In this document: positions 1 to 24,772 of the stretch, in pieces
Numbering within the stretch: the stretch's first letter is position 1
Layout: every line of letters starts with the position of its first letter
NCBI GenBank assembly: GCA_039815185.1
Contig: JBCBZT010000044.1
Span: forward strand, 1 to 64,000
Direction of reading: 5' to 3'
Length of the DNA stretch: 64,000 nucleotides
DNA from: Cyanobacteria bacterium P01_A01_bin.123
Lineage (GTDB): Bacteria > Cyanobacteriota > Cyanobacteriia > Phormidesmidales > Phormidesmidaceae
Translations under genes and position numbers: made by a program
The notes under the pieces: generated by a model
Told to the model about the DNA's origin: nothing
Seen by the model: the letters and a program-made list of their open reading frames with translations, nothing else
The model's database searches: none

Positions 1-3000
1 ACCTTTAGCGTAGGTGGAACCAGCCCCACGACCGTGGTACTGGGTGACATCAATGGTGATGGCCTGGAAGACGCGGTTACCACCGATGAAGGCTCCAACT
101 CCATCTCGCTTCTGATTAACGATGGGGCTGGCGGCTTCCTAGCAGCCCAAAGTTTCGCTTCTGGCGGCACTCAACCTGTTGAACTAGCACTGGGCGATGT
201 GAATAACGATGGTCGTTTAGATGCAGTTGCCCTCAATGTTGGTTCCAACAATGCTTCAGTTTTCCTCGGCAACGCCAGTGGCAGTTTTGATGCACAACAA
301 ACCTTCGCAGTTGGCAGCACGCCAGTTGGTTTGGGCATTGCTGATGTTGATAGCGATGGCAATCTAGATGTCTTCACCGCAAATCTGCAAGACCGCACTG
401 TCAGTGTCAACCTTGGTAATGGAGATGGCAGTTTTGGCGCACCCTCAGTAGGCGATGGTATTGGCAATCGACCTCTAGACATGACGGTTGCTGACCTCAA
501 CGCTGACGGTATTCAGGACTTCATCACCGCCAACGCTAGCTCCCGAAATGTATCGATTGGGTTAGGGAATGGCGTCGGCGGGTTCACTGTCACCAACTAT
601 GCCCTTGGGGCACGCCCGAATGCAGTCACTACTGGAGATATTGATGGGGATGGGGATCTGGATCTGGCTGCCTCAGACTTCAGCAATGACACAGTTGCCC
701 TCCTGTTCAATGATGGCAGTGGTAACTTTAGTGGTTTGACTAGCTTCGGTGTGGGTGACAACCCTTCTGATGTGTTGCTGCAAGATATCGATGATGATGG
801 CAACCTCGATATCTTGACTAGCAACGCCAACTCTGGTGATATTTCAGTTCTTACTGGCAACGGCAGCGGTGGGTTCACAGCGCAAACGCCACTGACTCCA
901 GCCACGGCTCCAGCTGGTCTAGCCTTCTCTGAAAATTTGGGTACCTCGGTACCCGATACTACCGCGCCGGCATTGCAAACCGCAGAGGTGGACGGTGCAA
1001 GCCTGACACTGACGTACGATGAAGCCCTTGATGGTGCATCCGACCCCTTGGGAAGTGACTATGGGGTCACCATTAACGGTGTGGCAGCGATGGTCACTAC
1101 AGTGGATGCCGATGGGACGACGGTGAGCCTGACGTTGGATACAGCGGTTGCCTTTGGTGATGTGGTGACGGTGGACTACACACCGGGTGGCACCCCTGTA
1201 CAAGATGAGGCGGGCAATGATGCAATTGCCTTGAGTGCCCAGGCGGTGACAAACAATACGGCTGAGCCTGACACCATTGCCCCAGTATTGCAAACCGCAG
1301 TGATTGACGGCATGAGCTTGGTTCTTAGCTACGATGAGGCGCTGGATGGCGCGTCTGACCCCGTAGTTGGTGACTATGTGGTTAGCGTTAACGGCGTGGC
1401 GGCTGGTGTTAGCACCGTTGATGCGGATGGGACAACTGTGAACCTGTCGTTGCTGACAGCGGTTAACGCGGGTGATACGGTAACAGTGGATTACACCCCC
1501 GGTGGTACTCCCGTTCAAGATATTGCCGGTAATGATGCGATTGCCTTGAGTGCTCAGGCTGTCACCAACAACACGACGGGAGCTGGGGGCGGTGGTTCCG
1601 GGCTCTCTAGTGTGATTGTAGCTAACCGATTCTCTGGGTCTATTTCTGTATTTGAAAGTGATGGCACGGGTGGATTTGGCACCCCAACCACATTTGCAAC
1701 GGGGACGCAGCCTTTTGCCGTTGCTCTCGGTGACATCAATCAAGACGGACTGGATGATGTGGTTGTCGCGAACCGAGGCTCGGATACTCTATCTTTGCTG
1801 ATTAACGATGGGACAGGCGGATTTTTAGCGGCCCAGGATTTTACCGTAGGGGCGCAGCCAGTACACGTTATTCTTGAAGACATTAATAGCGATGGTTATT
1901 TAGATGCCTTGGTGCCTAACAACAGCGGCGGTACCGTCTCTGTTTTGTTGGGTAACACCAGCGGTGGGTTTGACCCTCAAACAACTGTGGTCACTGGTGT
2001 CGGTCCTTGGGAAGTGGCTATGGCTGATATGAATAATGACGGTAACCTCGACCTACTGACCGTCAATGTGACGGATCAGGTGGTGACGGTCAACCTGGGA
2101 GATGGTCTAGGGAGCTTTGCAGCGACTAGCGGTACCTACGGTGTGGGTGCTCGACCAGAGGGTCTAGTCCTAGAGGATGTCAATAACGACGGCAACCTTG
2201 ACTTCCTAGTGAGTAACGCGAGTTCTCGAACGGTCTCTGTAGGACTGGGCGATGGCCTCGGAGGCTTTGCTGCAACGGTTGACTACGGCACAGCTGGGAA
2301 CAGTCCTAGCCCGATAGCGGTAGATGACCTCAACGGCGACGGCTTTGCTGATATTGCAGTTGGCAATACTGGCGCTGATACTCTGGCTGTTTTGTTGAAC
2401 AACGGCGATGGTACATTTGCGGCTCCCAACATATTCTCGCTGGGGGATCAATCCTTTGATATCATCCTTCGGGATGTCAATGGGGATAGCGCGTTGGATG
2501 TACTGTCGGCCAATGCCGGCTCAGACACTGTGACAGTCTTGGCTGGTGACGGTGCTGGTAACTTCTCGTTGTTGGCGACCCTCAACACCGAAATGGCTCC
2601 GTCTGATCTGGCCTTTGGCAATCTCAGTGGTGGTGGCGTGGTTGATCCAACTGCGCCGATGCTGGTGAGTGCAGTCGTTAGTGGTACTGCCAATAACAGC
2701 ACCTTGAAGCTGATTTACAACGAGCGACTGGATGGAGATGCGGACCCTGTGGCAGGTGACTACACGGTGACGGTCAACGGTGTTGCCCAGGCGGTAGCCA
2801 GTGTTGATGTGCTACCTGGCACTGATGCCGAGGGTACCAACGTAATCTTGACAATGGCTAACCCTATTGCTCAAGGGGATGTGGTGTCGGTGAGCTACAC
2901 TCCTGGCTCAACGGCGGTGCAAGATCTAGACGGCAACGATGCTGCTAGCTTCACCAACCAGGCAGTTACCAACCTCCGTGACTTTACTCTGACCTATTCC

Positions 3001-5151
3001 TTCATGACTGTTGGGGATGTCTTTGACTTCACTGAGTTTGGCTATACCTATGATGATGGCTACGTCACTAACTTTGATACGTTACCTACAGAAGCTGCTA
3101 ATACCACGAACTTAGCAGTTCGCAAAAATGCGGCAGACATGACCGAGGAGGAGATCGATGCCTATGTCAATGCCATTCTGACCCTTAAGGAGACGACTGT
3201 TCTGACCGATAACGGCATCGAAATTAGCCTCTATGACCAGTTTGTCGCGGCTCACGTATCTACCGCAGATGCAATTGGTCGTCAGGCCCCCGATGGCAGC
3301 ATAATGCGCAACCCAGCCCACGGCGGTGCAGGGTTTATGCCGTGGCACCGTTTGCTGCTCATAGAATATGAGAATGCATTACAGGCGGTGAACCCTAACG
3401 TCACGCTGCCTTACTGGGATTGGACTGATCTCAATACCACCATGAATGTGCTCTTACAAGATAACTTCATGGGACCAGCCGCCCAGGGCGATGTGACGAC
3501 AGGCTACTTTAGTGAGAGCAATGGTTGGGGCGTACGCAACGACCTCAGTGGTGGTCGGTGGACAGGGCTTGATTCTGGCACAGACGCTTTGGGTCGCGGG
3601 GTTGGCGTCCAAGTCCAGAACCCAGGTACCTGGGAGACCAATGTCCAGGCTAGTTTGGGACAAAATGGCTACAATCTCTTTGCGAATAATGTAGAGCGTA
3701 GCACCGGAAATCATAACAATGCTCACGGTTTTATCGGTGGCATTATGTCAAACGTGTCAGCTTCTCCCAATGACCCGATCTTCTGGATGTTGCACTCCAA
3801 CGTTGACCGGCTCTGGGCTGAGTGGCAGGTTAATAATCACTGGGGGAATAACTTCTACGTTCCAGAAGGGTCTGAAAGCTATGGACATAACCTAAACGAT
3901 CCGCTTTTCCTGTGGGACAACGGTGTTATTCCGATTGCGACAGATCTGCGTGACCTGTTACCCAAGTTCCCTGGCGCAAATGCCAGTGCAATTGTGAATG
4001 GTAACACCACGATTGAAGGAGACTTACAGAACAGCGGCGTGGTCACACCGGGCAGCTCTCCTGGCAAAATCCATGTAGAAGGGAATTATATTCAGGATGC
4101 TGTGGGTGAACTCACCATTGAAATTGCGGGTCGTAAGCGTGGCGAGAAATATGATTTCTTGAAAGTGGATGGCACCGCCTCTTTGGATGGCACCCTCAAT
4201 GTCTACTTCTTGGGTGACTTTGCCCCCCAGTACGGAACCTTTACTTTCTTGGCGGCTGACAGTATTGAAGGTGATTTCACTGATATCAATATCTTTGGCC
4301 TAGAGACGCCGATTGATTACAGGTTCTACAAGTCTGACGATGGCAAGGCTTATAAGCTCGAGATGATGGGCTTAGATGAGTCTGGAGAGTCTGGCTATGG
4401 TGTGGCTCAAACCTCCCAGGCACTTTATGAAGATACTGACTTGAACTTGTACAATCCCCGGTTTGGCCGTGGCTTAGATATGTACGTCTATGGCCATAGT
4501 GTCCACCATGGTTGGGACTACAACGGCGAAGATGCTCTGGTTGATCACTCAGCCCATGGCGGTGGCAGTGACTGGTATCTCCCTTACGACGTTGACATCA
4601 GTGAGTGGATTACTGCTCTGAATAATGGAGAAGCGATTCCTGAGGAATATATGTCTCCAATGATGCACGGTGATCACGGTGACCACGGCGGTATGGATCA
4701 TGGCGATCATGATATGGATGGTGACATGAATCACGATGATCACGGTGGCCAAGGTGGTATGGATCATGGCGACCATGATATGGATGATGATATGGCCCAC
4801 GGCGGCATGGATCATGGCGACCATGATATGGGTGGTGACATGAACCACGGTGATCACGGTGGTATGGATCATGGCGATCATGATATGGGTGGTGACATGG
4901 CCCACGGCGGCATGGATCATGGCGACCATGATATGGATGGTGACATGAACCACGGTGATCACGGTGACCAAGGTGGTATGGATCATGGCGACCATGATAT
5001 GGGTGGTGACATGAACCACAGTGATCACGGTGACCAAGGTGGTATGGATTATAGCGACCATGATATGAGTGGTGACATGAACCACGGCAATCACAGTATG
5101 ACTACGTTCTCAGGTGACTCACTTGAGAAGTCAAAGATGACCTTGATATAG
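1..5151 (+). CDS. Giant extracellular-type multidomain protein, 5'-truncated: FG-GAP/VCBS repeats, 3 SwmB-like repeats, tyrosinase domain, autotransporter-like beta region, His/Met/Asp/Gly-rich tail
   Basis: Frame is open from base 1 (TFSVGGTSPTTV...). Many GD(I/V)NxDGxLD repeats. Three 'APxLxxAxVxGxxLxLxYxExLD' SwmB-like units. Tyrosinase CuA (FVAAH, NPAHGG, FMPWHR) and CuB (HNNAH, PNDPIFWMLHSNVDRLW) motifs with all six His present. GVVTPGSSPG..GNYIQ segment follows. Confidence 0.9.
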   Translation, partial: TFSVGGTSPTTVVLGDINGDGLEDAVTTDEGSNSISLLINDGAGGFLAAQSFASGGTQPVELALGDVNNDGRLDAVALNVGSNNASVFLGNASGSFDAQQTFAVGSTPVGLGIADVDSDGNLDVFTANLQDRTVSVNLGNGDGSFGAPSVGDGIGNRPLDMTVADLNADGIQDFITANASSRNVSIGLGNGVGGFTVTNYALGARPNAVTTGDIDGDGDLDLAASDFSNDTVALLFNDGSGNFSGLTSFGVGDNPSDVLLQDIDDDGNLDILTSNANSGDISVLTGNGSGGFTAQTPLTPATAPAGLAFSENLGTSVPDTTAPALQTAEVDGASLTLTYDEALDGASDPLGSDYGVTINGVAAMVTTVDADGTTVSLTLDTAVAFGDVVTVDYTPGGTPVQDEAGNDAIALSAQAVTNNTAEPDTIAPVLQTAVIDGMSLVLSYDEALDGASDPVVGDYVVSVNGVAAGVSTVDADGTTVNLSLLTAVNAGDTVTVDYTPGGTPVQDIAGNDAIALSAQAVTNNTTGAGGGGSGLSSVIVANRFSGSISVFESDGTGGFGTPTTFATGTQPFAVALGDINQDGLDDVVVANRGSDTLSLLINDGTGGFLAAQDFTVGAQPVHVILEDINSDGYLDALVPNNSGGTVSVLLGNTSGGFDPQTTVVTGVGPWEVAMADMNNDGNLDLLTVNVTDQVVTVNLGDGLGSFAATSGTYGVGARPEGLVLEDVNNDGNLDFLVSNASSRTVSVGLGDGLGGFAATVDYGTAGNSPSPIAVDDLNGDGFADIAVGNTGADTLAVLLNNGDGTFAAPNIFSLGDQSFDIILRDVNGDSALDVLSANAGSDTVTVLAGDGAGNFSLLATLNTEMAPSDLAFGNLSGGGVVDPTAPMLVSAVVSGTANNSTLKLIYNERLDGDADPVAGDYTVTVNGVAQAVASVDVLPGTDAEGTNVILTMANPIAQGDVVSVSYTPGSTAVQDLDGNDAASFTNQAVTNLRDFTLTYSFMTVGDVFDFTEFGYTYDDGYVTNFDTLPTEAANTTNLAVRKNAADMTEEEIDAYVNAILTLKETTVLTDNGIEISLYDQFVAAHVSTADAIGRQAPDGSIMRNPAHGGAGFMPWHRLLLIEYENALQAVNPNVTLPYWDWTDLNTTMNVLLQDNFMGPAAQGDVTTGYFSESNGWGVRNDLSGGRWTGLDSGTDALGRGVGVQVQNPGTWETNVQASLGQNGYNLFANNVERSTGNHNNAHGFIGGIMSNVSASPNDPIFWMLHSNVDRLWAEWQVNNHWGNNFYVPEGSESYGHNLNDPLFLWDNGVIPIATDLRDLLPKFPGANASAIVNGNTTIEGDLQNSGVVTPGSSPGKIHVEGNYIQDAVGELTIEIAGRKRGEKYDFLKVDGTASLDGTLNVYFLGDFAPQYGTFTFLAADSIEGDFTDINIFGLETPIDYRFYKSDDGKAYKLEMMGLDESGESGYGVAQTSQALYEDTDLNLYNPRFGRGLDMYVYGHSVHHGWDYNGEDALVDHSAHGGGSDWYLPYDVDISEWITALNNGEAIPEEYMSPMMHGDHGDHGGMDHGDHDMDGDMNHDDHGGQGGMDHGDHDMDDDMAHGGMDHGDHDMGGDMNHGDHGGMDHGDHDMGGDMAHGGMDHGDHDMDGDMNHGDHGDQGGMDHGDHDMGGDMNHSDHGDQGGMDYSDHDMSGDMNHGNHSMTTFSGDSLEKSKMTLI
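4663..5097 (+). repeat. Coding tandem repeat encoding (DHGG/AHGG/DQGG)MDHGDHDM(D/G)GDM(N/A)H units
   Basis: About 8 near-identical copies of ggYatggatcatggcgaYcatgatatg within the C-terminal tail of the first ORF. Confidence 0.9.
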
Positions 5152-5170
5152 CCGGAGCATCATCAAGTGG

Positions 5171-10852: not shown

Positions 10853-11953
10853 ATGTCAGCGAATACAAAACTACAACAAATCGATCAGGCTCTGATCGAC
10901 TTACTCAACCAGCGAATTACTCTACTGGCTGAAGCTGATGTCCTCGACAGACAGTGGCAGCTTGAGGCATCACAATCACAGCTAGCCCAGATGGGCGTTC
11001 CTGAATTTCTCTGGGAAAGTATTATTACCGGTTGCACCGCTGCCTTGGCAGAGATGCAACCAACTAGTCGGCAGTCTGCTATGCGCAAGATTATTCTAGT
11101 CGGTGGTCGCGGTATGATGGGGCAATTTTTTAATGCTCACCTCACTGCAGCAGGTCATGAAGTCAATATCTTGGACCGTAGTGACTGGCCAAATGCGGAT
11201 CAGATTGTCGCTGATGCAGATTTGGTTTTGCTGTGTGTCCCTCTGGACAAAACGATTTCAATCATTCAAAAATTAGCGCCCTACCTCTCGCCCCAAACCA
11301 TTTTGGCAGATATTGCTAGCATCAAAACGCCGGTGGTCAAAGCCATGCTAAAGGCACATCCAGGACCTGTCTTGGGACTCCATCCGATGTTTGGACCGGG
11401 AGTTGATTCGTTTCTCTCTCAAAAAATTGTAGTGTGCCCAGGTCGCGGTTATGATGCCTGTCGCTGGTTGCTTGACTTGATGACCCAAGAAGGGGGCGAT
11501 CTAATTACCTGCAAACCTGAAGAACATGATCAAATGATGATCACCGTTCAGGCCATTCGGCATTTTTCGACCTTTAGCCTGGGGGTGTTCTTGGCAGAGG
11601 AAGGGACCGATGTTAGCCGTAGCCTTGAGTTTGCCAGCCCGATTTATCGCATCGGCATTAATATGATTAGTCGACTATTTGCTCAAAATGGAGCTTTATA
11701 CGTAGATATTATGCTGGCTTCCAGCGAGTGCCGCGAGGCGATTTATCGTTTGTCTGAGACCTATCAGCGCCTCGCTACGTTGGTTGAGAAGAACGATCGA
11801 GCCGCTTTGGTTAATGAGTTTTCCCAGGCCCGTCAGAGCTTTGAACCCGGCGCTCCCCAAGCCCTGAAAGAGAGCAATCATCTGATTAATAGCCTCAGCA
11901 ACTTTTTGGCAGCTGATTCGATCGAGCATTGTCCTCACTATGCTTGTGCTTAA
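10853..11953 (+). CDS. tyrA: Bifunctional chorismate mutase / prephenate dehydrogenase (T-protein type)
   Basis: N-terminal CM-like helix (QIDQALIDLLNQR), Rossmann VGGRGMMG, DIASIK, GLHPMFGP, EEHDQMM..VQAIRHF. The ATG at 10853 lies 18 nt after the synthetase stop. Confidence 0.88.
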   Translation: MSANTKLQQIDQALIDLLNQRITLLAEADVLDRQWQLEASQSQLAQMGVPEFLWESIITGCTAALAEMQPTSRQSAMRKIILVGGRGMMGQFFNAHLTAAGHEVNILDRSDWPNADQIVADADLVLLCVPLDKTISIIQKLAPYLSPQTILADIASIKTPVVKAMLKAHPGPVLGLHPMFGPGVDSFLSQKIVVCPGRGYDACRWLLDLMTQEGGDLITCKPEEHDQMMITVQAIRHFSTFSLGVFLAEEGTDVSRSLEFASPIYRIGINMISRLFAQNGALYVDIMLASSECREAIYRLSETYQRLATLVEKNDRAALVNEFSQARQSFEPGAPQALKESNHLINSLSNFLAADSIEHCPHYACA

Positions 11954-12036: not shown

Positions 12037-13500
12037 ATGAGTTTACAACAAAAGGCTATCAAGGGTGTTGTCTGGACCTCCCTTCAAAACTGGGGAGGTC
12101 AGGCGCTTTTTTTTATTACGTTTTTAGTTTTAGCTCGACAGCTTGGCCCGGCTACATTTGGGCTGGTGTCGATGGCTAATATTTTTATTCATTTTGTGCA
12201 AGCCCTACTGGGGCAAGGTTTTGCGGATGCTATTGTGCAACGTAAAGATCTTGAAGATGAACACTTAGACACGGCTTTTTGGGCTAATTTGGGCATCGGT
12301 GCCCTGCTATTCTTACTCGGTCTAGGTACCGCTGATTTGATTGCTAATGCCTTTAATCAAGTCGAGCTTGCGCCGATCATACGAGTGTTGTCCTTCAGCG
12401 TTGTGCTCAATTCGTTTAGTAGCACTCAGCAGGCCATCTTGCGACGTCGGCTCGATTTTAAGTCTTTGGCAGCACGGAAGCTGATCGGTCAGGCAGTGGG
12501 CTGTGCCGTTGCGATCTCAATGGCGATTGGTGGGTTTGGCGTATGGAGTCTTGTTGCCCAGCAGCTACTGAACAATCTGGTGGGTACCTTGCTTCTATGG
12601 AAAATCAGTGATTGGCGTCCTGGTTTTAAGGTCTCAAAACGTCACTTCAAAGACCTGTTTAATTTCGGCATTAATGTGATTGGTATGAACATTCTAGTTT
12701 TTGTCAGTCTGCGTAGTGACGATCTCTTAATTGGGTACTACTTGGGACCAGTGGAATTGGGCTACTACACTGTTGCCTATCGACTTTTGGTAACACTGAC
12801 CCAGCTACTAACCGATACTGTTAGGCAGGTGGTCTTACCCGCATTTGCTCGCTTACAAGATGATAAAGAGAAAGTTCGACAGGCGTTTTATACTGCTACC
12901 GAGTTGATGAGCTTTGCCGCGTTTCCGGCCTTTTTAGGCATGGCTGTGCTCTCCCCCGAGCTTGTATTAGGACTCTTTGGAGAGCAATGGCAGCCTAGTA
13001 TTCCGGTCATGCAGTTGCTCGCAATGGTCGGGCTACTGCGGTCTGTCTTTAACTTTAGCGGTGCCGTCATTATGGCACTCGGCAAACCCACCTGGAATCT
13101 TATCCTGATGCTCTTAGATACTCTGGGGAAAGTGATTGCCTTTCTGATTGCAGTCAGATGGGGCATTGTGGCGGTGGCGGCCGGTCTGCTGATCTCGACT
13201 TGTATATTTGCACCCCTCAGACTTTGGGCAATTTATCGCTTAGTTCAATTAAATATTCGCGCCTATTTGACCCGGTATGCATCGCCCCTCATGGGTGCTG
13301 GCATTATGGCAGGCTCCATTTTGCTTTGCAAATACGTCCTAAGTGCATATCTGAATGTCAAAGTTTTATTGGGTCTTTGCATTGTTCTGGGGGCTGTGAT
13401 CTATTTGGGCTCTATTTTTCTAATGGCCCCCCAGTTTTACCAAAAGCTGATAGGGTTTGCACGATCGGCTGCACCAGCCTCGTTACAAAAACGTCTGTAG
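12037..13500 (+). CDS. Wzx-type polysaccharide flippase (PST/MOP family)
   Basis: MSLQQKAIKGVVW start, LARQLGPATFG, about 12-14 hydrophobic segments, DLLIGYYLGPVELGYYTVAY. Confidence 0.88.
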   Translation: MSLQQKAIKGVVWTSLQNWGGQALFFITFLVLARQLGPATFGLVSMANIFIHFVQALLGQGFADAIVQRKDLEDEHLDTAFWANLGIGALLFLLGLGTADLIANAFNQVELAPIIRVLSFSVVLNSFSSTQQAILRRRLDFKSLAARKLIGQAVGCAVAISMAIGGFGVWSLVAQQLLNNLVGTLLLWKISDWRPGFKVSKRHFKDLFNFGINVIGMNILVFVSLRSDDLLIGYYLGPVELGYYTVAYRLLVTLTQLLTDTVRQVVLPAFARLQDDKEKVRQAFYTATELMSFAAFPAFLGMAVLSPELVLGLFGEQWQPSIPVMQLLAMVGLLRSVFNFSGAVIMALGKPTWNLILMLLDTLGKVIAFLIAVRWGIVAVAAGLLISTCIFAPLRLWAIYRLVQLNIRAYLTRYASPLMGAGIMAGSILLCKYVLSAYLNVKVLLGLCIVLGAVIYLGSIFLMAPQFYQKLIGFARSAAPASLQKRL

Positions 13501-13549: not shown

Positions 13550-14494
13550 ATGACGATGATGACTACCACGCAAACTCGTATGAAAATCGATATAACCATC
13601 CCTAACTTTCTAATTGTCGGGGCTGCTAAATCAGGGACAACGTCTCTTTACTATTATCTTAAGCAGCATCCAGACATTTATATGAGCAAGTTAAAGGAGC
13701 CTCATTTCTTTAGTTTTGAAGATGAAACGTTGACTTTTCGCAGAGCTGGCAATCAGCCTGACCCGATTAATCAATCTGCGGTGACAGACTGGGCAAGCTA
13801 TTGTGCCCTGTTTGAGGCGGCAACTACTGAGCAACGCATTGGCGAAGCCTCTCCCAGCTATTTACATACGCCCAAAGCGGCCAATGGGATCAAAGCTCGT
13901 CTCCCGGAGGCAAAGCTGATTGCGATTTTGAGGCATCCTGCTGAGCGGGCTTATTCTGGATTTTTAGGTCAGTATCTCAATGGTATTGAAAAAGGAGTTC
14001 CCTATCTTTCTGATTTTGCAGACGCTGTTCACTCAGAAGAAAGGTTTGAGCACGAGAATTGGACACCGATCTTTTTCTACAAAAAACTAGGGTTTTATTA
14101 TGAACAGCTGAAGTATTATTACAGCCTGTTTGATCGTGATCAAATCCATGTTTGCTTAAACGAAGATTTGCAGAAACAACCGACTGAAACACTGCAGGAA
14201 ATTTTCAGTTTTTTAGAGATAGATAATAGTTTTGTGCCCGATACCTCCGTGAGAGCTGGTGCATCGGGGGTTCCCAAAAATCAGTTTCTCTATCGATTTC
14301 TCAAGCAAAAATCAGTGAAATCGGTTTTGAAGCCTCTCATTCCCAAAGGCTTTGGGCAAAAATTTGAGAAGGCTATGCTAAATAAGCCAAAGCTCTCACC
14401 CGAAATGCGCCAAGAACTTATTGAAGTTTATCGCGATGATATTTTAAAGCTTCAAGATTTGCTTCAAAAAGATCTGTCGGCCTGGTTGAGGTAA
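13550..14494 (+). CDS. PAPS-dependent sulfotransferase
   Basis: PNFLIVGAAKSGTTSL 5'-PSB loop, KEPHFF, GEASPSY, LRHPAERAYS 3'-PB motif. Confidence 0.9.
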   Translation: MTMMTTTQTRMKIDITIPNFLIVGAAKSGTTSLYYYLKQHPDIYMSKLKEPHFFSFEDETLTFRRAGNQPDPINQSAVTDWASYCALFEAATTEQRIGEASPSYLHTPKAANGIKARLPEAKLIAILRHPAERAYSGFLGQYLNGIEKGVPYLSDFADAVHSEERFEHENWTPIFFYKKLGFYYEQLKYYYSLFDRDQIHVCLNEDLQKQPTETLQEIFSFLEIDNSFVPDTSVRAGASGVPKNQFLYRFLKQKSVKSVLKPLIPKGFGQKFEKAMLNKPKLSPEMRQELIEVYRDDILKLQDLLQKDLSAWLR

Positions 14495-14536: not shown

Positions 14537-15460
14537 ATGAAAAAGCCTAATTTCTTTATTGTGGGTGCACCTAAGTGTGGCACAACAGCCCTCTTTACCT
14601 ATCTGGGGGAACATCCTGACATCTACATCCCAGAAACGTCTGAAACGCTCGAATCGCAGCTCGGTGGGAAAAAGGAACTCCATTTCTTTGGCCATGATTT
14701 AGGGTTTAATCGACCCTCTCTGGAAGACTATCTTAATTACTATGCCAACGCTAATGGTGAGCAGCAGTTGGGGGAGTCATCGGTTTTTTACTTATATTCT
14801 CAGCAGGCTGCCGAGGAGATTAAAGCGTTTAACCCTGATGCCCGCATCATCATCATGCTTAGAAACCCAGTCGATATGATGTATTCGTGGTATTCTCAGC
14901 TACTGTTCTGGGGCGATGAAACCCTACCGACCTTTCAGGATGCGCTGGCGGCAGAGGCCGATCGCAAAATTGGTAAACGCCTACCCATCCGGGCAGATCA
15001 TCCCATTGAGTGTTTTTACTATCGAGAGATTGCTAAATATACCGATCAAGTCAAACGCTATTTTGAGTTGTTTGGTCGAGATCGCGTCCATGTCATTATT
15101 TTTGATGACTTCAAGCAGGATACGGCTGCTGTCTATCGAGATGTGATGCAATTCCTTGAGTGTCGTGAGGCGTATGAGCCTGATTTCAGAGTGATCAATT
15201 CAAATAAAAGTATTCGAAATAAACTTTTGCAAAGCTTCCTCCGCCACCCACCCAAGCTGATACGGCGATTGATAGATGCGCTGATACCTATCCCTGTCCG
15301 ACGCATTGTTCGGCAAATGTTGCAGAAATATAACACGCAGGATGGTGCCCGAAATGTCCTTGATGCGGAACTGAAGGCAAAACTGCAGTCGGAGTTTAAA
15401 TCAGAAATTGAAAACCTGGGACAATTGCTAGCTTTAGACTTAAGTCACTGGGTTCAGTAA
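14537..15460 (+). CDS. PAPS-dependent sulfotransferase
   Basis: PNFFIVGAPKCGTT, KELHFF, GESSVFY, LRNPVDMMYS. Confidence 0.9.
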   Translation: MKKPNFFIVGAPKCGTTALFTYLGEHPDIYIPETSETLESQLGGKKELHFFGHDLGFNRPSLEDYLNYYANANGEQQLGESSVFYLYSQQAAEEIKAFNPDARIIIMLRNPVDMMYSWYSQLLFWGDETLPTFQDALAAEADRKIGKRLPIRADHPIECFYYREIAKYTDQVKRYFELFGRDRVHVIIFDDFKQDTAAVYRDVMQFLECREAYEPDFRVINSNKSIRNKLLQSFLRHPPKLIRRLIDALIPIPVRRIVRQMLQKYNTQDGARNVLDAELKAKLQSEFKSEIENLGQLLALDLSHWVQ

Positions 15461-15864: not shown

Positions 15865-17100
15865 ATGAAGGTCTTACATCTAAGTACATTTGACATTGAG
15901 GGAGGAGCTGCTCGGGCTGCTTATCGAGTTCACCAAGGGCTCACTGCTATTGATGGAATTACCTCCAATATGTTGGTGCGTCTCAAAAGTAGCCCCGATC
16001 CCCAGGTGATCAAAGAAAAATCGTGGTTTACACAGGCTGGCCCCTTCTTTAATAGGCTTCCATTGAGGCATTATACTCAGCGGGAACGTAAGCTATTCTC
16101 ACCTCAATGGGGTCCAGACTCATTAGCCCCAACTGTGAACCAATTGGCACCTGATATTGTGAATTTGCATTGGGTCTGTAACGGTTATTTGCGAATTGAG
16201 ACCCTCAAAAAGATTAAGTACCCCTTGGTTTGGACATTGCAAGATATGTGGCCAATGACCGGGGGTTGCCACTATAGCGAAGCCTGCGATCGCTATCATA
16301 ATTCATGCGGCCGTTGTCCTCAACTCGGCAGTACAAAGGAAAATGATCTCTCTCGACGGATTTTAGAACGTAAGAAAAAAGCCTGGTCAGGGCTGAATTT
16401 GACAATTGTGGCACCCAGTCACTGGATGTCAGACTGTGCTAAAGCGAGCAAGGTATTCCAAAACTTCAGAATAGAGGTAATTCCTTTTTGCTTAGATTTA
16501 AAGACATATCGTCCTCAAGATAAGAGTTTTTCTCGTCGAGTGCTCAATTTACCTGAAGACAAAAAACTGATTTTATTTGGAGCGTTGGCGGCAACCGCTG
16601 ATAAGCGCAAGGGATTTGACTTACTGGTCTCCGCGCTACAAAAACTCAGTAAAGCCGGGATATGTAAAGATGCAGAAGTTGTTGTGTTTGGGTCTAATCA
16701 ACCTAAGGCGCCGATTGATTTAGGCTTTAAATCCCACTACCTTGGGCATCTTAGTGATGATATTTCCTTATCGCTGGTTTATTCTGCGGCTGACGTGATG
16801 ATAGTGCCCTCTCTGCAAGAATCATTTGGTCAAACAACATCTGAAGCATTAGCTTGTGGCACTCCTGTCGTTGCGTTTAATGCGACAGGCCCCAAAGACA
16901 TCGTTGATCATGAGAAAAATGGTTATTTGGCTCAACCCTACAGTCCAGAGGATTTAGCAAAAGGAATTGCCTGGATATTAGAAGACGATGAACGACGCCA
17001 AAACTTGAGTCATCATGCCCTTAACAAAGCCATCAAAGAATTTGGCTTAGATATTCAGGCTCAACGGTATAAATCTTTGTATGAGAAAATCTTAATGTAA
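15865..17100 (+). CDS. Glycosyltransferase family 4 (WcaC-like)
   Basis: GGAARAAYR, WTLQDMWPMTGGCHY, RKGFDLL, PSLQESFGQTTSEALACGTPVV. Confidence 0.9.
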   Translation: MKVLHLSTFDIEGGAARAAYRVHQGLTAIDGITSNMLVRLKSSPDPQVIKEKSWFTQAGPFFNRLPLRHYTQRERKLFSPQWGPDSLAPTVNQLAPDIVNLHWVCNGYLRIETLKKIKYPLVWTLQDMWPMTGGCHYSEACDRYHNSCGRCPQLGSTKENDLSRRILERKKKAWSGLNLTIVAPSHWMSDCAKASKVFQNFRIEVIPFCLDLKTYRPQDKSFSRRVLNLPEDKKLILFGALAATADKRKGFDLLVSALQKLSKAGICKDAEVVVFGSNQPKAPIDLGFKSHYLGHLSDDISLSLVYSAADVMIVPSLQESFGQTTSEALACGTPVVAFNATGPKDIVDHEKNGYLAQPYSPEDLAKGIAWILEDDERRQNLSHHALNKAIKEFGLDIQAQRYKSLYEKILM

Positions 17101-17289: not shown

Positions 17290-18210
17290 ATGAATCAACC
17301 TAATTTCTTGATTGTAGGAGCTGCTCGCTCAGGCACTACAGCACTGCACTATTATCTAGCGCAGCATCCAGATATTTTTATGAGTGCTCGTAAAGAGCCT
17401 AACTTCTTTGCTTATCAAGATGGCACATTTGATTTTCCTTATCCAGGAGATGCTGAAGGTAAAGCCAAGCTTTTAGATTATTCAGTAACCAACTTTGAGA
17501 GTTATTTAGAGCTGTTTAAAGGGGCTACAGATGTAGCAGCGGTTGGTGAAGCCTCACCCTACTATCTATTAAGTGAACAAGCGCCTGATCGGATTCAGAA
17601 TCGACTACCAAATGTCAAATTGATTATGATTCTGCGCGATCCGGTTGATCGGGCTTATTCTCATTTCTTACAAGCCGCTCGGAGTGGAAACTTTAATCCC
17701 GACGACTTTCCCAATTTGTTGAAAGCAGAGGAAGCCGAAAATCATTGGGGGTGGGCCCGTCATTGCGTATATATTAGCCAGTATTATACACAGATAAGCA
17801 ACTATCTAGAAAGCTTTGATCTTGATCAGATTAAAATTTATCTCTATGATGATCTCAAAACCAACCCTGATGAACTCATAGAAAGTATCTGTAATTTCCT
17901 TGAGGTAGACACAGAGTTTGAGCTTGACGTATCGCTGCAATACAACAAATCTGGAGTCCCTAAAAATAAAATTTTAGACTTACTGCTTTCACGAAAAAAT
18001 ATTCTTAAACCTCTTCTAAAAAATGCTCTTCCAGGAAGCATAGTCAATATCCTAGCAAAATTTCAAAACCGCGTTCAAAACTATAACTTATATAAACCGC
18101 CTGCAATTTCTCCAGAATTTCGAGCATTTTTAGTTGAGCGATATTTTCGTGAAGATATACTAGGTTTGCAAACTCTAATCCAGCGTGATCTCTCAGCCTG
18201 GTTATTGTGA
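17290..18210 (+). CDS. PAPS-dependent sulfotransferase
   Basis: PNFLIVGAARSGTT, KEPNFF, GEASPYY, LRDPVDRAYS. Confidence 0.9.
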   Translation: MNQPNFLIVGAARSGTTALHYYLAQHPDIFMSARKEPNFFAYQDGTFDFPYPGDAEGKAKLLDYSVTNFESYLELFKGATDVAAVGEASPYYLLSEQAPDRIQNRLPNVKLIMILRDPVDRAYSHFLQAARSGNFNPDDFPNLLKAEEAENHWGWARHCVYISQYYTQISNYLESFDLDQIKIYLYDDLKTNPDELIESICNFLEVDTEFELDVSLQYNKSGVPKNKILDLLLSRKNILKPLLKNALPGSIVNILAKFQNRVQNYNLYKPPAISPEFRAFLVERYFREDILGLQTLIQRDLSAWLL

Positions 18211-18241
18211 TTCTGATGCTATGTATACCGTTAGCCGTCAA

Positions 18242-19405
18242 ATGAATAATACTCCTAAAGTGGCTTGGTTATTACCGGTAACCTGGTTTTACTGGCAACC
18301 AACCTTGAGTAAATTTACTCAACTCTTCCCAAAGACTCAAATTTTCACAGCCCTTTGGCCAGGATATGCCCAAGGGTTTGAAGATACTTTAAAGGTTGAG
18401 GTGTTAGGTGAATTCAAGGTTTTAAAGACCCCTGAAAAACGTCGAAAATATGGCACTCATTTTAAGGGAATGAGTTTGACCTTTACCCAGCTTCCTCTAA
18501 ATATCGTTAGCCACCTGTTGGAAGCAAAACCCGATATTGTTTTTACTAGTTCCTTTGGGGTTTGGACACTGGCAGCGGCCTTACTAAAAGTAATTGGTCG
18601 TTGGAAGCTAGTCGTTGCCTATGAGGGGAGTTCCCCTCGGGCTGATCGTCTTGATTCTGCTCCGCATACGCTCTTGCGGAAAGCTGTTGTAAGCTCGGCA
18701 GACGCTTTCATTACGAATAGCCGCACAGGCCAGCAGTATCTGACTAACTTCCTCAACGCAGATGCGAAGCGGGTATTTGTTTTCCCTTACGAGATTCCGG
18801 CGGCTGAGTCATTACTAGTTAGTCAAGATGATACGCCAGTGATACCTCCAGATGAGCAAAGACCGATCTTCCTATTTGTTGGCCGTCTTATGCCCAGAAA
18901 AGGGGTACATACATTACTGGAAGCCTGTACATTGCTCAAACGCAGGGGCTACGATGGGCAATTTACTGTGCTGGTGGTTGGAGATGGTGAAGAACGTGAG
19001 TCGTTAGAAGCTATCAGCCAGGAGAATCAACTGGAAAGATGTGTGAAATGGCTGGGTAGAGTTGATTATGAGCAGATTAGTTGTTACTTTCGGCAGTCAG
19101 ACGTTTTTGTGTTGCCCACTTTAGAGGATACCTGGGGAGTCGTTGTTTTAGAGGCTATGTTAATGGGTAAGCCGGTGCTTTGTTCGACCGGTGCTGGCTC
19201 CTCTGAAATGATTACCCAGGGCAAAAATGGCTATGTTTTCACGCCTGAACAACCCGAGCAGCTCGCTGACATCATGGAAAAATTTATTGAATCTCCTGAA
19301 TTGGCTCAAAAGATGGGGAACTGCTCTCAGGAAATTATGGCGCGGTGCACGCCGGAGTCAGCCTCTCAAAACCTGGCCAAGGTTGTCACCTCGCTAACCC
19401 GATGA
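18242..19405 (+). CDS. Glycosyltransferase family 4
   Basis: LFVGRLMPRKG, PTLEDTWGVVVLEAM. Start placed at the ATG at 18242 (MNNTPKVAW); the track's start overlaps the previous gene. Confidence 0.88.
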   Translation: MNNTPKVAWLLPVTWFYWQPTLSKFTQLFPKTQIFTALWPGYAQGFEDTLKVEVLGEFKVLKTPEKRRKYGTHFKGMSLTFTQLPLNIVSHLLEAKPDIVFTSSFGVWTLAAALLKVIGRWKLVVAYEGSSPRADRLDSAPHTLLRKAVVSSADAFITNSRTGQQYLTNFLNADAKRVFVFPYEIPAAESLLVSQDDTPVIPPDEQRPIFLFVGRLMPRKGVHTLLEACTLLKRRGYDGQFTVLVVGDGEERESLEAISQENQLERCVKWLGRVDYEQISCYFRQSDVFVLPTLEDTWGVVVLEAMLMGKPVLCSTGAGSSEMITQGKNGYVFTPEQPEQLADIMEKFIESPELAQKMGNCSQEIMARCTPESASQNLAKVVTSLTR

Positions 19406-19593: not shown

Positions 19594-20733
19594 ATGCTTA
19601 TCAGTAATATGAATGTTGAAAAAGTTGCAATTTTCACCCACGGCATTCAAAAAGGTCCATTCGCTAGACTCAGCACGACCTTAGCTCGAGGGCTAAATCA
19701 GCTTGATATTGACTGTGATGTGGTTGTGCTAAATGCCAGGGAAGCTGATAAGGCAAAGTATTCCGATATTAAGGTATGTTCTCTTGAGGTTAGTCGTGCC
19801 CTGCTATCTCTACCAGCATTGGTTTCTTATTTAGATAAGCATCAGCCAGACATCATTTTTTCTATGCCTTGGTACTTTAATATCATTGCTATTTTGGCAA
19901 GGGTTTTTTCTAGGCACAAACCTAAGATTATTATTGGAGAGCACAATATTTGCAGTTTAGAGTCTCAGATTGAGCATGGGAGTTCCCTCAAAACCCGTTA
20001 TTTACCTATCTTGATGCGCTTAACTTATGGTCATAGCAATGGCTTGATTGGGGTTTGTCATGACACTGTCAAAGATTTAGTTGAGTACGTCAAAATTTCA
20101 CCTCATTTGCCTACCAAGGTTATTTCTAATCCTATCGATATTCAAGGTATTCAGGAAGAGTCCCAGGCTCCTGCTTCCCATGCTTGGTTCAACAATCCTG
20201 AAATGATGACGGTTTTAACCGTTGCTCGTATGGCAAAACAAAAACAGCTCGATGTTCTTTTAAAGACGTTCGCTAAAGTACTGGAGGTTGAGCCTACAGC
20301 CCGATTAATAATTTTAGGTGAGGGGCCTTTAAGGCCAGATTTAGAAGCTTTAGCCGAAAAACTTGAGATTCAAGACTATGTTTCTATGCCGGGATATGAT
20401 CCCAATCCCTACAGCTGCATGAGGAAGGCCGATGTGTTCGTATTAGCTTCAGCTTGGGAGGGATGCCCAGTGGCCTTAGAAGAAGCTTTAGCTTGTGGAA
20501 CTGCAGTGATCGTGAACGATGCACCGGGCGGGTCAAAGGATATTGTTAACCATGGAGAATTCGGGGTTGTTGTTCCCTCAGGAGACATCGATTCCTTATC
20601 AAAGAGTATTCTACAACTACTCACAGATGTTGCTTTAAAGGAGCACTATCAAAAGCAATCCCTGCAAAGGGCAAAATCTTTCGATTTTTTAGATATCACC
20701 CGTCAATATCTAGAGTTCGCTCAGTCTGTCTAA
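19594..20733 (+). CDS. Glycosyltransferase family 4
   Basis: VARMAKQKQ, ILGEGPLR, FVLASAWEGCPVALEEALACG. Confidence 0.88.
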   Translation: MLISNMNVEKVAIFTHGIQKGPFARLSTTLARGLNQLDIDCDVVVLNAREADKAKYSDIKVCSLEVSRALLSLPALVSYLDKHQPDIIFSMPWYFNIIAILARVFSRHKPKIIIGEHNICSLESQIEHGSSLKTRYLPILMRLTYGHSNGLIGVCHDTVKDLVEYVKISPHLPTKVISNPIDIQGIQEESQAPASHAWFNNPEMMTVLTVARMAKQKQLDVLLKTFAKVLEVEPTARLIILGEGPLRPDLEALAEKLEIQDYVSMPGYDPNPYSCMRKADVFVLASAWEGCPVALEEALACGTAVIVNDAPGGSKDIVNHGEFGVVVPSGDIDSLSKSILQLLTDVALKEHYQKQSLQRAKSFDFLDITRQYLEFAQSV

Positions 20734-20854
20734 ATACTACTTTAGATTATATGCATTGAACTTGACTTAACAGTTAAAATTGACTTACTAATTAAACTTA
20801 AATCAATAGATAGAAAAATCACACCTAAAGAACCACGAAAATTTTCGGCTATGG

Positions 20855-21796
20855 TTGATGAGGAAAAAAATGGCAGATACTTTAAGCGCTTTTCAGAATA
20901 ACAGAGTGTTATCCAAAACACTACATCATATATCGCCAAATTTAACTAAACCTGTGTTCATTATTTCTGCGCCTCGATCGGGTTCTAGTTACTTATACGA
21001 AATCGCACGAAAGATGCAAGGAGTCATTTCTTTTAATAGAGAGAATAGTGCTTTATGGTTTAGAGTTTTTCCGTATGCTGATGCCTCATGCGCATCAGAT
21101 TATATTGGGATCAAAGATTGTACGCCTAACAGATGCGCATCACTCAAGTCGCTCATTGCAACGAAAGCAGTTTTTGATCGAAAGCGTATTGATCGTGAGG
21201 TATTAATCAAAAACTTTGTTTTACGAAGATCAATGCGCTATATGGAAAAAACCATATCTAATTGTTTCCATTTAGATGCAATAGAGAAGATTTTTCCTGA
21301 CGCCATTTACATTCACTTGGTTCGCGATGGCAGAGATAATATATCCTCAATGATTGAAGGATGGAATACCTTTGTAAAGGTGGGGATAGACCTACCAACT
21401 TCTACCAAAATAAAGCACTGGGCATATGCAATGCCTCCAGGATGGCAGACACAAGTTGAGAAACCCATCGAAGAAATTTGTGCTTGGAGTTGGATTGAGC
21501 ACAATAGGTATGTGCTCGATAAATTTACTGGAAAATCCAATTCGGGAAACTATATTAGATTGTATTATGAAGATTTGCTGAGTAATCCTTTAAAGATGCT
21601 TGAAAAGATTTCTACCTTTGCAGATTTACCGACTTCAGAGCAAGCTTTTGCCTACATAAATTCTAAAAAATTGAGTTGGTCGGCAATCTCTCCACCGAAG
21701 AGAGATAAATGGAAGGAATTAAATCTCGAAAAAATTGAAAGAATTTCTCCAAAAATCGAACCTATGATGAAAAAGCTAGGATATTCAGGGATATAG
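20855..21796 (+). CDS. Sulfotransferase (Sulfotransfer_3-like)
   Basis: PVFIISAPRSGSS, MEKT, FPDAIYIHLVRDGRDNISS, YYEDL. Exact start uncertain. Confidence 0.85.
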   Translation: MMRKKMADTLSAFQNNRVLSKTLHHISPNLTKPVFIISAPRSGSSYLYEIARKMQGVISFNRENSALWFRVFPYADASCASDYIGIKDCTPNRCASLKSLIATKAVFDRKRIDREVLIKNFVLRRSMRYMEKTISNCFHLDAIEKIFPDAIYIHLVRDGRDNISSMIEGWNTFVKVGIDLPTSTKIKHWAYAMPPGWQTQVEKPIEEICAWSWIEHNRYVLDKFTGKSNSGNYIRLYYEDLLSNPLKMLEKISTFADLPTSEQAFAYINSKKLSWSAISPPKRDKWKELNLEKIERISPKIEPMMKKLGYSGI

Positions 21797-22240
21797 CTAG
21801 ATATCTTCCTATCTTAGGGAATCTATAATCTTTAGCAAATCTATGATAGAAAGTGTCAATTTAAACCATAATGACACTGTTCATTTTCAACATACAACGT
21901 TTCTGAGTCTAGCGAGCTAAAGGAATCACCCCGAATCCCTTAATGCTAGATGATAGGGTGTACCTCACCCAGTAGGGAAATGCTATGATTCCTATATTCA
22001 ATCCTAACGTCTAATTAGTCAGACTAGTAAAGGGTGTTATAAGTCCACAAGGATGATCCTTACTCGTCAACACTAAATCCTCTGAGCTTATCACCTCCAG
22101 TATTGGAGAACTAAGGGAAGTGATAAGAACAACTAATCATTTACAGGTAACTATTTAATATGAATGTCAACAAGATCAAATAGTTTTAGTTTAGTAATTA
22201 GCTATATTTATTTGTGTCGAAATCAATTAGGAAGCTTAAA

Positions 22241-22752: not shown

Positions 22753-23125
22753 AGTATCACACCATATTACAAGCCAATTCCCCTTCGTTATCGCTGATTT
22801 ATTTCTGTCGGTGGGGATCAATTTTATATGTGTGGCTGGCTGAACTATTTTAGTTTCAGGGGTTCCAGGCCATAAGTGGTTGATTAACCTTTGGCTCTAC
22901 CGATCCCTTTATGAAATGTCCATGACGAACATACCTGGCCGCTTAGAACGCCCAAAAGTCTTAAGAAGACAAGCATCTAATGTGATTACGCATATTGAAT
23001 CCCGGCGAGCTCAGGCTCTTTCGGTAAGCCCTGATTCGCCTTACTGTATTCTGCCAAGCTTTAGTATCAGAAAAATCGCTTAAAATCTAGTCAGAACTCT
23101 CAATATTCTTGTGACATATAAAGCA

Positions 23126-23157
23126 AATGATCTGAGCTATTAATGATCTGAGCTATT
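23126..23157. repeat. Perfect 16-bp tandem duplication
   Basis: aatgatctgagctatt x2. Confidence 0.9.
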
Positions 23158-23470
23158 TTTTAGATTAGCTTTAAAGTAAGACTTTATCTATCACGATTGA
23201 TAAAAATTACTCTGTTAGCAAGCCGAAAATATACTCCTAGAATGACCACGTCTATATGTGTAGTATCCGCAGTTGTATCAAAGTCTTGCCGTGGAATTTT
23301 GAGAATTATCTGTATTAAATATAAACTGCCTTTATTTATGATTTCTAAGATCTTTGCTTTTACCTTTTTTAGACTATCCAATATATTCCGATGCAAAGTG
23401 ATAAGGAAGCCTAGCATGTTGAAAACTCAAAAGATATCACATTCAGTAAAGGATTAAATCAGAATAGACT

Positions 23471-24772
23471 ATGACTTCCTCAAAAGACAAAACTAATCAC
23501 AATGCTGGACAGCAAAATCAGCAAAGAGTTATGCTGTTTGATCTATCGGTGGGTGGGCATCATCCAAGTTATATCCTCTATTTGATTCAGTATTGGTGCG
23601 AACATAATCTGTCTGGTAATCTTGATATTGTAATATCGCCTGACTTTATGAAAAGGCATTTTGATGTAGTTGAATCAGCTCAAGCATATCGAGATACATC
23701 CGTTCAATTTATTCCGATTAGTTCTCGCGAGAAAGCTGAGCTATTGTCTCATGATTCTTCGTTAAAGGCCGCGAAACGGTCTTTTCAAGAATGGAGACTG
23801 ATGTGCAAATATGCCAAGAAGTTGAGAAGTAACCATATCTTTTTGATGTATTTTGATACTGCTATAGTGCCTTTTATTTTTAGCCAAAAGCCTCCCTGTG
23901 TTATTTCTGGCATTTATTTTCGACCTACGTTCCACTATCGCCGTTTTCCAGAACATATATCTCTGCTAAAAGATCGATTTCAGACTTGGCGAGAATATTT
24001 CAACCTTTCTCAGATTCTTGGTAATCCTAAACTGCACACGCTTTTCAGCCTCGATCCGCTTGCTGTTGAGTCAATTCGTCAGTTTTCGAAGCGAGACAAT
24101 GTGTTTCCACTGGCTGATCCGGTCAAGCTTTATGCCATTCCTGATATGAGAGTGCAGCAACTTAAGGCCGAGCTTGGAATTGAGCCTAATACAAAAAAGG
24201 TATTCTTGCTATTTGGAGCGTTATCTCGACGCAAAGGAATCCATCATTTACTTGAAGCTATACCGCTGTTACCGAAGGCTATATCAAGCCAAATTTGCCT
24301 TTTACTGGTAGGTAGTCTAGGCTCCAATGCGGATGATAAGTCGTTCTTGCAAGAGCGGTTAGCGAGACTCGCTATTAAAAATGCTCTTCAAGTTATCATA
24401 GTAGACCAGTTTATTCCTGAGTCAAATATACAGGTTTATTTTAAAATTTCTGACATTATTTTGGCACTTTATCAGCGACATGTTGGGATGAGTGGCATCT
24501 TAAACAGGGCCGCTATTGCGACAAAGCCAGTGCTTTCCACAAATTATGGCCTCATGGGTGAACTTACCCGTCGTTATAAGCTTGGTTTAACTCTGGACTC
24601 TACTCAACCCCAGGATATTGCCAATAGTTTAAGTCGATGCATTCAAGAGCGGCCAGAATGCTGGATTGATCCAAAACTAATGCAGCAATTTGCTAATCAG
24701 AATGATGTAGAGCGCTTTTCAAAAGCTGTGTTTGAGCATATTTCCCAATCACCACCTCTGTCTACAAAATAG
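23471..24772 (+). CDS. Glycosyltransferase (GT-B, family 4-like)
   Basis: GGHHPSY N-terminus, LLFGALSRRKG, YQRHVGMSGIL..AA...KPV. Confidence 0.82.
   Translation: MTSSKDKTNHNAGQQNQQRVMLFDLSVGGHHPSYILYLIQYWCEHNLSGNLDIVISPDFMKRHFDVVESAQAYRDTSVQFIPISSREKAELLSHDSSLKAAKRSFQEWRLMCKYAKKLRSNHIFLMYFDTAIVPFIFSQKPPCVISGIYFRPTFHYRRFPEHISLLKDRFQTWREYFNLSQILGNPKLHTLFSLDPLAVESIRQFSKRDNVFPLADPVKLYAIPDMRVQQLKAELGIEPNTKKVFLLFGALSRRKGIHHLLEAIPLLPKAISSQICLLLVGSLGSNADDKSFLQERLARLAIKNALQVIIVDQFIPESNIQVYFKISDIILALYQRHVGMSGILNRAAIATKPVLSTNYGLMGELTRRYKLGLTLDSTQPQDIANSLSRCIQERPECWIDPKLMQQFANQNDVERFSKAVFEHISQSPPLSTK

Follow-up and report, generated by a model that had tools for sequence, protein, structure and literature searches.

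A rare cyanobacterial locus joins a keto-acid synthetase, TyrA and a tyrosinase to sulfated-glycan genes: a candidate for phenolic decoration and oxidation of the sheath

What might a cyanobacterium make with a tyrosinase, a synthetase that activates keto acids, a TyrA and the genes for a sulfated polysaccharide, when all of these lie side by side? The question is raised by the first 64,000 nucleotides of contig JBCBZT010000044.1 (C44), the start of that contig in the 8.09 Mb genome of Cyanobacteria bacterium P01_A01_bin.123 (GCA_039815185.1; G000); this whole stretch is called the window below. An earlier note on this DNA had described a giant tyrosinase protein, a synthetase, tyrA and wzx, followed by sulfotransferases and glycosyltransferases (GTs), up to position 24772. 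Scans for open reading frames and Pfam domains found all of the named genes, on the forward strand and in that order. The close spacing reported there also holds, with 17 and 83 bases from stop codon to ATG on the two sides of tyrA; the 18 and 84 given in the note were differences between coordinates. The argument turns on four genes.

1..5151, + strand: giant tyrosinase-bearing repeat protein, 3' 1716 amino acids in the window, about 2150 with the part on contig C19
5577..10835, + strand: standalone keto-acid synthetase of 1752 amino acids, pseudo-Asub, A, KR, PCP and TE
10853..11953, + strand: TyrA, a prephenate dehydrogenase of the T-protein type whose short N-terminus is chorismate-mutase-like
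12037..13500, + strand: Wzx flippase

We propose that these genes would serve to build a sulfated Wzx/Wzy glycan carrying 4-hydroxyphenyllactyl groups, which would be oxidised outside the cell. We give this chain as a whole, covalent grafting included, an even chance of being right; its separate links carry weights of their own. The cluster itself is real, rare and conserved.

In the synthetase, a pseudo-Asub segment (an AMP-binding_C match at residues 44-116) precedes the adenylation (A) domain, which is followed by a ketoreductase (KR), a peptidyl carrier protein (PCP, written T, for thiolation, in module formulas) and a thioesterase (TE). The ten pocket positions, for which we assume GrsA-equivalent numbering mapped by motif, read IGSWLAASGK. 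A protein named AerA by its source (P0135) has the identical ten-residue code and an A domain that is 58% identical, and in a quick version of an A-domain tree the synthetase groups with AerA in the same broad clade. The closest PDB match is StsA (6ulw), over residues 132-1426 with E 4.5e-244, a match that spans the KR-T linker; the next are the StsA A domain (1e-149) and McyG. In the alignment, I427 and G535-M536 fall on I306 and G414-M415 of StsA, the signature described for keto-acid activation, in which a hydrophobic residue replaces Asp235 and a Gly-Met motif is present; the same source describes the split pseudo-Asub domain of keto-acid modules (PMC7923214). Keto-acid A domains have been reported to cluster by aliphatic or aromatic substrate (PMC13643306), and AerA enzymes load either phenylpyruvate (aeruginosin 126A) or hydroxyphenylpyruvate (686A) (PMC10143770). 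The code therefore indicates an aromatic keto acid and not which one. The catalytic residues are in place (K757; KR Y1193 and N1197; PCP S1387; TE S1516, D1543 and H1721), and those of the KR, PCP and TE are invariant or nearly so across 31 aligned family members. The claim that this is a keto-acid synthetase thus appears sound, judged by its StsA-type signature, pseudo-Asub, intact KR and PCP and AerA-identical code, and we are highly confident that its product would be an aryl-lactyl thioester.

Might the A domain instead belong to the fatty acyl-AMP ligases (FAALs), the module making a lipid anchor? The top NCBIfam matches are indeed FAAL-like, though all fall far under the family cut-offs. 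Against this stand the StsA-type residues and layout, the grouping with AerA, and the scores themselves, solved FAALs being matched only at about 1e-42, compared with 1e-149 for the StsA A domain. We have rejected this reading, to which we assign a nearly negligible probability. Two other candidates were set aside as well. Atromentin-type A-T-TE quinone synthetases have no KR, and in them the keto group survives for condensation; here a KR is present, with its cofactor and catalytic residues intact. Membership in an aeruginosin pathway would agree with the aromatic pocket, but would also call for downstream nonribosomal peptide synthetases (NRPSs) with condensation (C) domains (AerB, AerG) and for Choi genes, and no C domain or further NRPS was found among the 39 window proteins scanned. 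Unlike AerA, a starter of A-KR-T type, the synthetase has a fused TE, lacks a C-domain partner and lies in a glycan locus. It has in common with StsA/CesA-type modules and with ClyF (C-A-KR-T-TE) the pseudo-Asub split, Ile in place of Asp235, Gly-Met, KR and PCP, and differs from them as a single standalone module with no C domain and with an aromatic-type pocket. In the relatives P0038, P0040, P0072 and P0073 the synthetase includes either a fused sulfotransferase or a domain of the aromatic amino acid lyase family (PF00221).

TyrA bears on the identity of the aromatic acid. It scores 316 bits, over a cut-off of 273, for the bifunctional chorismate mutase/prephenate dehydrogenase family PRK11199, and resembles the H. 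influenzae structure 2pv7 (E 5e-66) far more closely than 2f1k (E 5e-10). The specificity position, located by translating the mutagenesis primers given in PMC5681985, is Gln278, which is non-acidic and of the prephenate type. It is a second copy in the genome; the other TyrA, on contig C92, is 26% identical to it. From the family and this residue its product would be 4-hydroxyphenylpyruvate, as has likewise been argued for the tyrA of the scytonemin cluster (PMC2726228). The earlier suggestion that TyrA supplies the precursor is borne out by the PRK11199 score, the likeness to 2pv7 and Gln278, as far as residues can tell, and we think it quite probable that the aryl-lactyl group is the 4-hydroxy form.

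The scytonemin cluster is a natural comparison, for it too has a dedicated tyrA and a tyrosinase (tyrP), devoted to a sheath pigment; its gene table, unlike this locus, lists no NRPS (PMC2726228). The locus TyrA is 48-49% identical to tyrA copies in two loci that resemble scy/ebo clusters (L194, L195). None of the scyA-F core genes was found in the window. When scy-like queries from L194 (labels our own) were run by tblastn against G000, three were unmatched, the ScyA-like query gave only 25-27% matches and the ScyB-like query gave a 54% match elsewhere in the genome. A scytonemin locus was therefore rejected, the core genes not being found in the window and the tests in G000 being negative or distant for all but the ScyB-like query. 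Ebo-like genes, 58-70% identical to those of L194, occur at G000:C47:37853-42689.

The giant protein is truncated by the start of C44. Contig C19 ends in 141 bases identical to that start and carries the 5' part of the gene, so that the order of domains is two DUF4347 (on C19), FG-GAP repeats, three SWM repeats, the tyrosinase domain and a tail. The tyrosinase domain (PF00264, at about 3229-3828 of the window) is the sole one in the genome, keeps all six copper histidines (H1085, H1107, H1116, H1238, H1242, H1265) and, compared with the PDB, hits bacterial tyrosinases at about 1e-32; the NCBIfam families for it score below cut-off (MelC2, 140 of 450 bits; BagH/FevF, 100 of 630 bits). The tail is rich in His, Met, Asp and Gly (16% His, 15% Met), with a repeat region at 4620-5150 that differs among homologues, and may bind copper. 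Export of the tyrosinase is suggested by its homologues: those of G042 and G045 start with a hydrophobic segment, and that of G044 is preceded by a small twin-arginine protein. On this basis the enzyme is likely to be secreted.

Four marine metagenome runs, all from one study, contain DNA of the window, and two of these are flagged as its possible origin; no RNA run is listed as containing it, which says nothing on expression. One contig of run X1 covers 4990-34888 with zero differences, and overlapping contigs of run X2 span the tyrosinase gene and the synthetase; since both agree with the layout, it is not an obvious misjoin. Run X1 also has a contig that diverges from the window at 4672, and the X2 depth over the giant gene is about twice that over the synthetase, hinting at a variant or a second copy of this gene.

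If the synthetase, TyrA and the tyrosinase act together, they should keep company elsewhere. A protein search with the synthetase returned 518 relatives at E <= 1e-100, and among the best 120 of these are at least about 30 standalone A-KR-T-TE proteins of 1650-1800 amino acids with the same code. We read the surroundings in eight other genomes of the window clade (G482, G251, G877, G041, G042, G045, G191 and G043), which span at least four families and include the isolate Lyngbya confervoides BDU141951 (G041; locus L026). The gene directly after the synthetase is tyrA in six of the seven genomes with downstream sequence, and wzx lies within two genes after the synthetase in all five with enough flank. 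Synthetase and tyrosinase share a contig in five of the eight (G251, G041, G042, G043, G877); in G877 the tyrosinase precedes a synthetase 5' end that is 92% identical to L024. In G482 and G045 the tyrosinase is on a separate contig. Its form varies, from a giant fusion upstream (G000, G041, G877), where the G041 and G877 homologues, 2767 and 2783 amino acids long, occupy the same place, to a protein of 430-450 amino acids downstream, after Wzy (G042, G045). Because the arrangement recurs in other families with its order rearranged, it goes beyond chance. The linkage of the synthetase-tyrA pair to tyrosinase and polysaccharide genes, whose absence elsewhere the earlier note would have taken as fatal, is therefore kept in other genomes.

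The combination is also rare. The other 171 genomes of the order, G186 removed, contain it once, and no full-length relative was found among 40 near relatives. An apparent additional copy in G186 (L021 on C23; also L210), about 39 kb long and 99.5-99.9% identical, was rejected as independent support: G186 belongs to another genus and has its own match to the gltX region at 73%, so that the contig is probably mis-binned, and G186 was omitted from all counts. Among 400 genomes sampled evenly from the class, a full-length synthetase at 58% or higher occurred in three, and the same three are among the four with a tyrosinase match at E <= 1e-40, being the best matches (71-79%). The fourth, G290, matches at 42% and has no synthetase match. 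In three further tyrosinase/synthetase pairs the two proteins come from contigs of equal length (43128, 29927, 17071), a hint that they too may be linked. The A-domain and tyrosinase identities to the window are correlated in rank (rho 0.88, n = 8), a value that we do not take to prove co-evolution, since kin have a common history.

Controls permit a sharper comparison. For this we took the loci in L022-L180 that contain an A-KR protein and have flanks of 8 kb or more (12 standalone A-KR-T-TE loci and 70 others, 18 and 92 before the flank filter), with the proviso that the scan patterns favour this pocket code and that two of the loci, L039 and L104, are near-duplicates. A tyrosinase was nearby in 5 of the 12 standalone loci and in 1 of the 70 others; the corresponding figures are 3 and 0 for wzx and 2 and 0 for tyrA, whereas a C domain was near none of the 12 and near 46 of the 70. 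Synthetases with other codes form a sister set of 15 genomes, several of them close kin, with standalone A-KR-T-TE proteins (VGVWLVAAAK, PGVWLTSSSK or PGIWLTSSGK, VAIFLGASGK). In the flanks fetched, two or more GTs or wzx were found at nine of the 15 sister loci and one GT at two more; tyrosinase or tyrA was near none of the 15. One sister locus adjoins HpsE-family genes scoring above cut-off and another lies in a Wza-Wzc cluster. A search for PF00264 in five sister genomes gave no match in three and matches on other contigs in two. From these counts, glycan genes accompany several codes, and tyrA with tyrosinase only the aromatic one. The sister synthetases may esterify aliphatic hydroxy acids onto extracellular polysaccharide (EPS). 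In many of them a Cys replaces the TE serine. The loci with codes other than that of AerA that lie in or next to GT and EPS clusters are L197-L207, L221, L232-L236 and L242, in genomes G192, G189, G066, G067, G069, G076, G463, G550, G609, G632 and G666.

These comparisons bear on the view that the locus is a cell-surface island whose parts have separate jobs, the tyrosinase acting on protein tyrosines, perhaps of its own repeats, while the synthetase makes an unrelated metabolite. Broad-family tyrosinases without a synthetase do exist (G290, G168), the distribution is patchy, and the fall in G+C along the locus from about 53% to 37% marks it as a mosaic. Nevertheless, the linkage has outlasted the rearrangement from a giant fusion upstream to a short protein downstream, and TyrA and tyrosinase accompany only the aromatic-code synthetase. 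We regard separate jobs as improbable, and coupling of the synthetase product to the tyrosinase as likely.

Is there a glycan to be decorated? From Wzx to 24772 the forward block holds four sulfotransferases, four GT4-type genes and a hexapeptide acetyltransferase, and the locus continues beyond the end that the earlier note had given it, in a convergent predicted operon at 24803-37165 whose genes have homologues in the same clusters of other genomes. The identities below are to counterparts in other loci.

13550..14494, + strand: sulfotransferase, 70% (L026)
14537..15460, + strand: sulfotransferase, 60% (L026)
15865..17100, + strand: GT4 glycosyltransferase, 58-60% (L025, L026)
17290..18210, + strand: sulfotransferase
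18185..19405, + strand: GT4 glycosyltransferase, 53-54% (L025, L026)
19594..20733, + strand: GT4 glycosyltransferase
20855..21796, + strand: sulfotransferase, without a paralogue in the genome
22333..22752, + strand: short hexapeptide-repeat O-acetyltransferase, 5' part likely in another frame
23471..24772, + strand: divergent GT-B glycosyltransferase, 42-46% (L025, L026)
24803..25633, - strand: probable divergent sulfotransferase; no Pfam match, Atlas points to a sulfotransferase fold; 52% (L190)
25763..27115, - strand: probable Wzy polymerase, multi-pass membrane protein, 51-52% (L025, L190, L256)
27424..29511, - strand: pectate-lyase-fold protein, about 35% (L025, L028)
29715..31778, - strand: second pectate-lyase-fold protein
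31868..33574, - strand: GMC oxidoreductase, 28% (L029)
33585..34559, - strand: aldo-keto reductase
34640..35821, - strand: GT4 glycosyltransferase, 69% (L190)
35894..37165, - strand: GT4 glycosyltransferase, 73% (L190)

Wzx, GTs and sulfotransferases thus occur together, as expected for a sulfated EPS of the Wzx/Wzy type. The putative Wzy has no Pfam match; Wzy_C is found on 12% of the members of one Atlas cluster, which is a lead only. On C19, upstream and in the opposite orientation, lies a WecG/TagA glycosyltransferase, homologues of which (52-62% identity) flank six related loci. Genes for the polysaccharide co-polymerase (Wzc) and the outer membrane exporter (Wza) are absent from the window; Wzc-like genes are on other contigs of G000 and adjoin the locus in G041. 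The synechan (xss) cluster shares Wzx, several GTs and sulfotransferases and probably Wzy with this locus, and its gene list includes no synthetase, tyrA or tyrosinase (PMC8205485), while the window locus has neither Wzc nor Wza. The glycan chassis is of a known kind; the decoration module is not.

Such genes could also be taken to mean that GTs and sulfotransferases decorate hydroxyphenyllactate itself, giving a small sulfated glycoside and no polymer. This would fit the relatives P0038, P0040 and P0072, whose synthetases contain a fused sulfotransferase domain, and hyellamide, a glycosylated tyrosine derivative made by cyanobacteria, is a precedent (PMC11959600). The presence of Wzx, a Wzy-like gene, six GT4-type genes, pectate-lyase-fold proteins and the conserved WecG/TagA amounts to polymer machinery, and renders the glycoside distinctly improbable.

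Several observations concern the neighbourhood. G+C is about 53% at the window start and 37-39% at 20000-24000, so that the block of sulfotransferase and GT genes may have been acquired on its own, as a cassette. The hexapeptide acetyltransferase (22200-22752) appears frameshifted near its 5' end, with no indel there in the four runs. A scan for promoters and terminators stayed at the level of shuffled sequence (43 versus 36.7 +/- 6.7 and 21 versus 18.7 +/- 4.1). On the minus strand at 43692-48133, consecutive fatty acid desaturase, O-methyltransferase and flavin monooxygenase-like genes form a possible small biosynthetic cluster. At L123:1-17527 an A-KR-T-C-A-T protein (IGSWIAGSGK) has GTs, a WecG gene and a gene for a pectate-lyase-fold protein as neighbours; the L104 locus family is present in the same contig type of organism as well.

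How might the parts work together? TyrA would convert prephenate to 4-hydroxyphenylpyruvate. The A domain, with its AerA-identical code, would adenylate this acid and load it on the PCP, and the KR, its motifs intact, would reduce it to 4-hydroxyphenyllactyl-S-PCP. The TE, or an acyltransferase-3 where there is one, would then acylate a sugar in the lipid-linked repeat unit; suggested by context, this is the weakest step. Wzx and Wzy would export and polymerise the glycan, and the tyrosinase would hydroxylate the phenol and oxidise it to catechol and quinone, the quinones cross-linking or darkening the matrix. The choice of the transfer step is based on the following argument. Neither a C domain nor a second NRPS was found among the 39 window proteins scanned, and therefore the TE, which combines a full Ser-Asp-His triad with a lid insert specific to its clade, is left with hydrolysis, oligomerisation or transfer. 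In Dlt and AlmEFG, surface polymers are acylated by way of carrier proteins, with other substrates and no oxidative cross-linking afterwards. The same reservations apply to the Pks13 TE, which releases a thioester-activated acyl product onto a sugar, trehalose (PMC9210659). We favour transfer because of this precedent and because hydrolysis would waste ATP on a product within reach of a reductase.

The foremost competing possibility is that the TE frees 4-hydroxyphenyllactate, or a small oligomer (a depside or lactide), which is exported separately and oxidised by the tyrosinase in the sheath, the glycan serving as a scaffold that is not enzymatically acylated; the product would be a diffusible cross-linker or a melanin-like pigment. 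The TE of ClyF has been proposed to hydrolyse simply (PMC7923214), and the TE here has its full triad and an ordinary fold. Moreover, in the near-duplicate loci L039 (8601-15058) and L104 (6374-12888) a small twin-arginine protein, a tyrosinase of 323 amino acids and an A-KR-T-TE protein follow one another, and the flanks contain no EPS genes. On the other side, a plain reductase would give the free acid without ATP, no transporter gene besides Wzx was recognised in the window locus, and sister synthetases of other codes occur in GT clusters that have no oxidase. We consider a diffusible phenolic unlikely. A multicopper oxidase lies about 3.5 kb upstream of the L039 and L104 gene rows.

A number of findings, the L039 and L104 rows among them, weigh against a glycan that is acylated and then oxidised. 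Among the standalone control loci, 7 of 12 have no tyrosinase and 9 of 12 no wzx nearby; L047, L101 and L103 have neither tyrosinase nor EPS genes in their flanks (two of which are short), and 4 of the 15 sister loci have no GT nearby. G043 has the cluster without a TyrA of this type, and the tyrosinase match of G191 is weak (E 9.8e-12, 84% complete). The locus searches used patterns containing a portion of the pocket code, and genomes that are kin are not independent of one another. Planktothrix and Microcystis proteins carry the same code, which cannot separate phenylpyruvate from its 4-hydroxy form. The predicted TE structure (mean pLDDT 79.6, lid insert under 50, generic thioesterase matches) is modelled as an ordinary thioesterase fold of NRPS and polyketide synthases and names no acceptor, and the acyltransferase-3 of L026 has no tblastn match in G000. 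Finally, the giant protein has no RTX-type repeats, and no export signal is evident in it.

Taking both sides together, we still place a phenol-bearing, extracellularly oxidised glycan first. In a wider and more tentative view, to which we give somewhat less than even weight, the standalone A-KR-T-TE protein would be a general cyanobacterial device for esterifying alpha-hydroxy acids onto EPS, to which one branch added TyrA and a secreted tyrosinase for extracellular tanning.

Oxidation of matrix phenolics by secreted enzymes is well known in the cross-linking of feruloyl-polysaccharides of plants and in the tanning of insect cuticle. In the sunscreen mucilage of Serritaenia, phenolics are likewise oxidised by secreted enzymes in the extracellular matrix (PMC11156808). 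These systems are eukaryotic and their enzymes unrelated, so that the analogy is one of function only. For bacteria, we found no description of this combination in titles and abstracts of a mostly open-access literature; tables of genome mining may still mention it. A review names methylation, sulfation and acetylation, along with pyruvate and peptide groups, on cyanobacterial EPS; its available text contains none of the words "aromatic", "phenol" and "lactate" (PMC4390846). Among sheath pigments, gloeocapsin has been called enigmatic, and another unexplained one was reported in 2026 (PMC13213007).

As a whole, the upstream chemistry is well supported by sequence, and the end role may be adhesion, hardening or a UV screen, among which sequence does not choose. 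Since the locus is present in the Lyngbya confervoides isolate, it can be tested directly whether a bacterial sheath is acylated with phenolics and hardened by oxidation. If our proposal is true, it would give NRPS thioesterases a new job and open a route to self-curing, catechol-bearing polysaccharides. It would also stand as a bacterial parallel to the feruloylated walls of plants and to insect cuticle, and offer genetic access to sheath pigments that lack an explanation; covalent grafting with cross-linking, if true, would be categorically new for bacteria.

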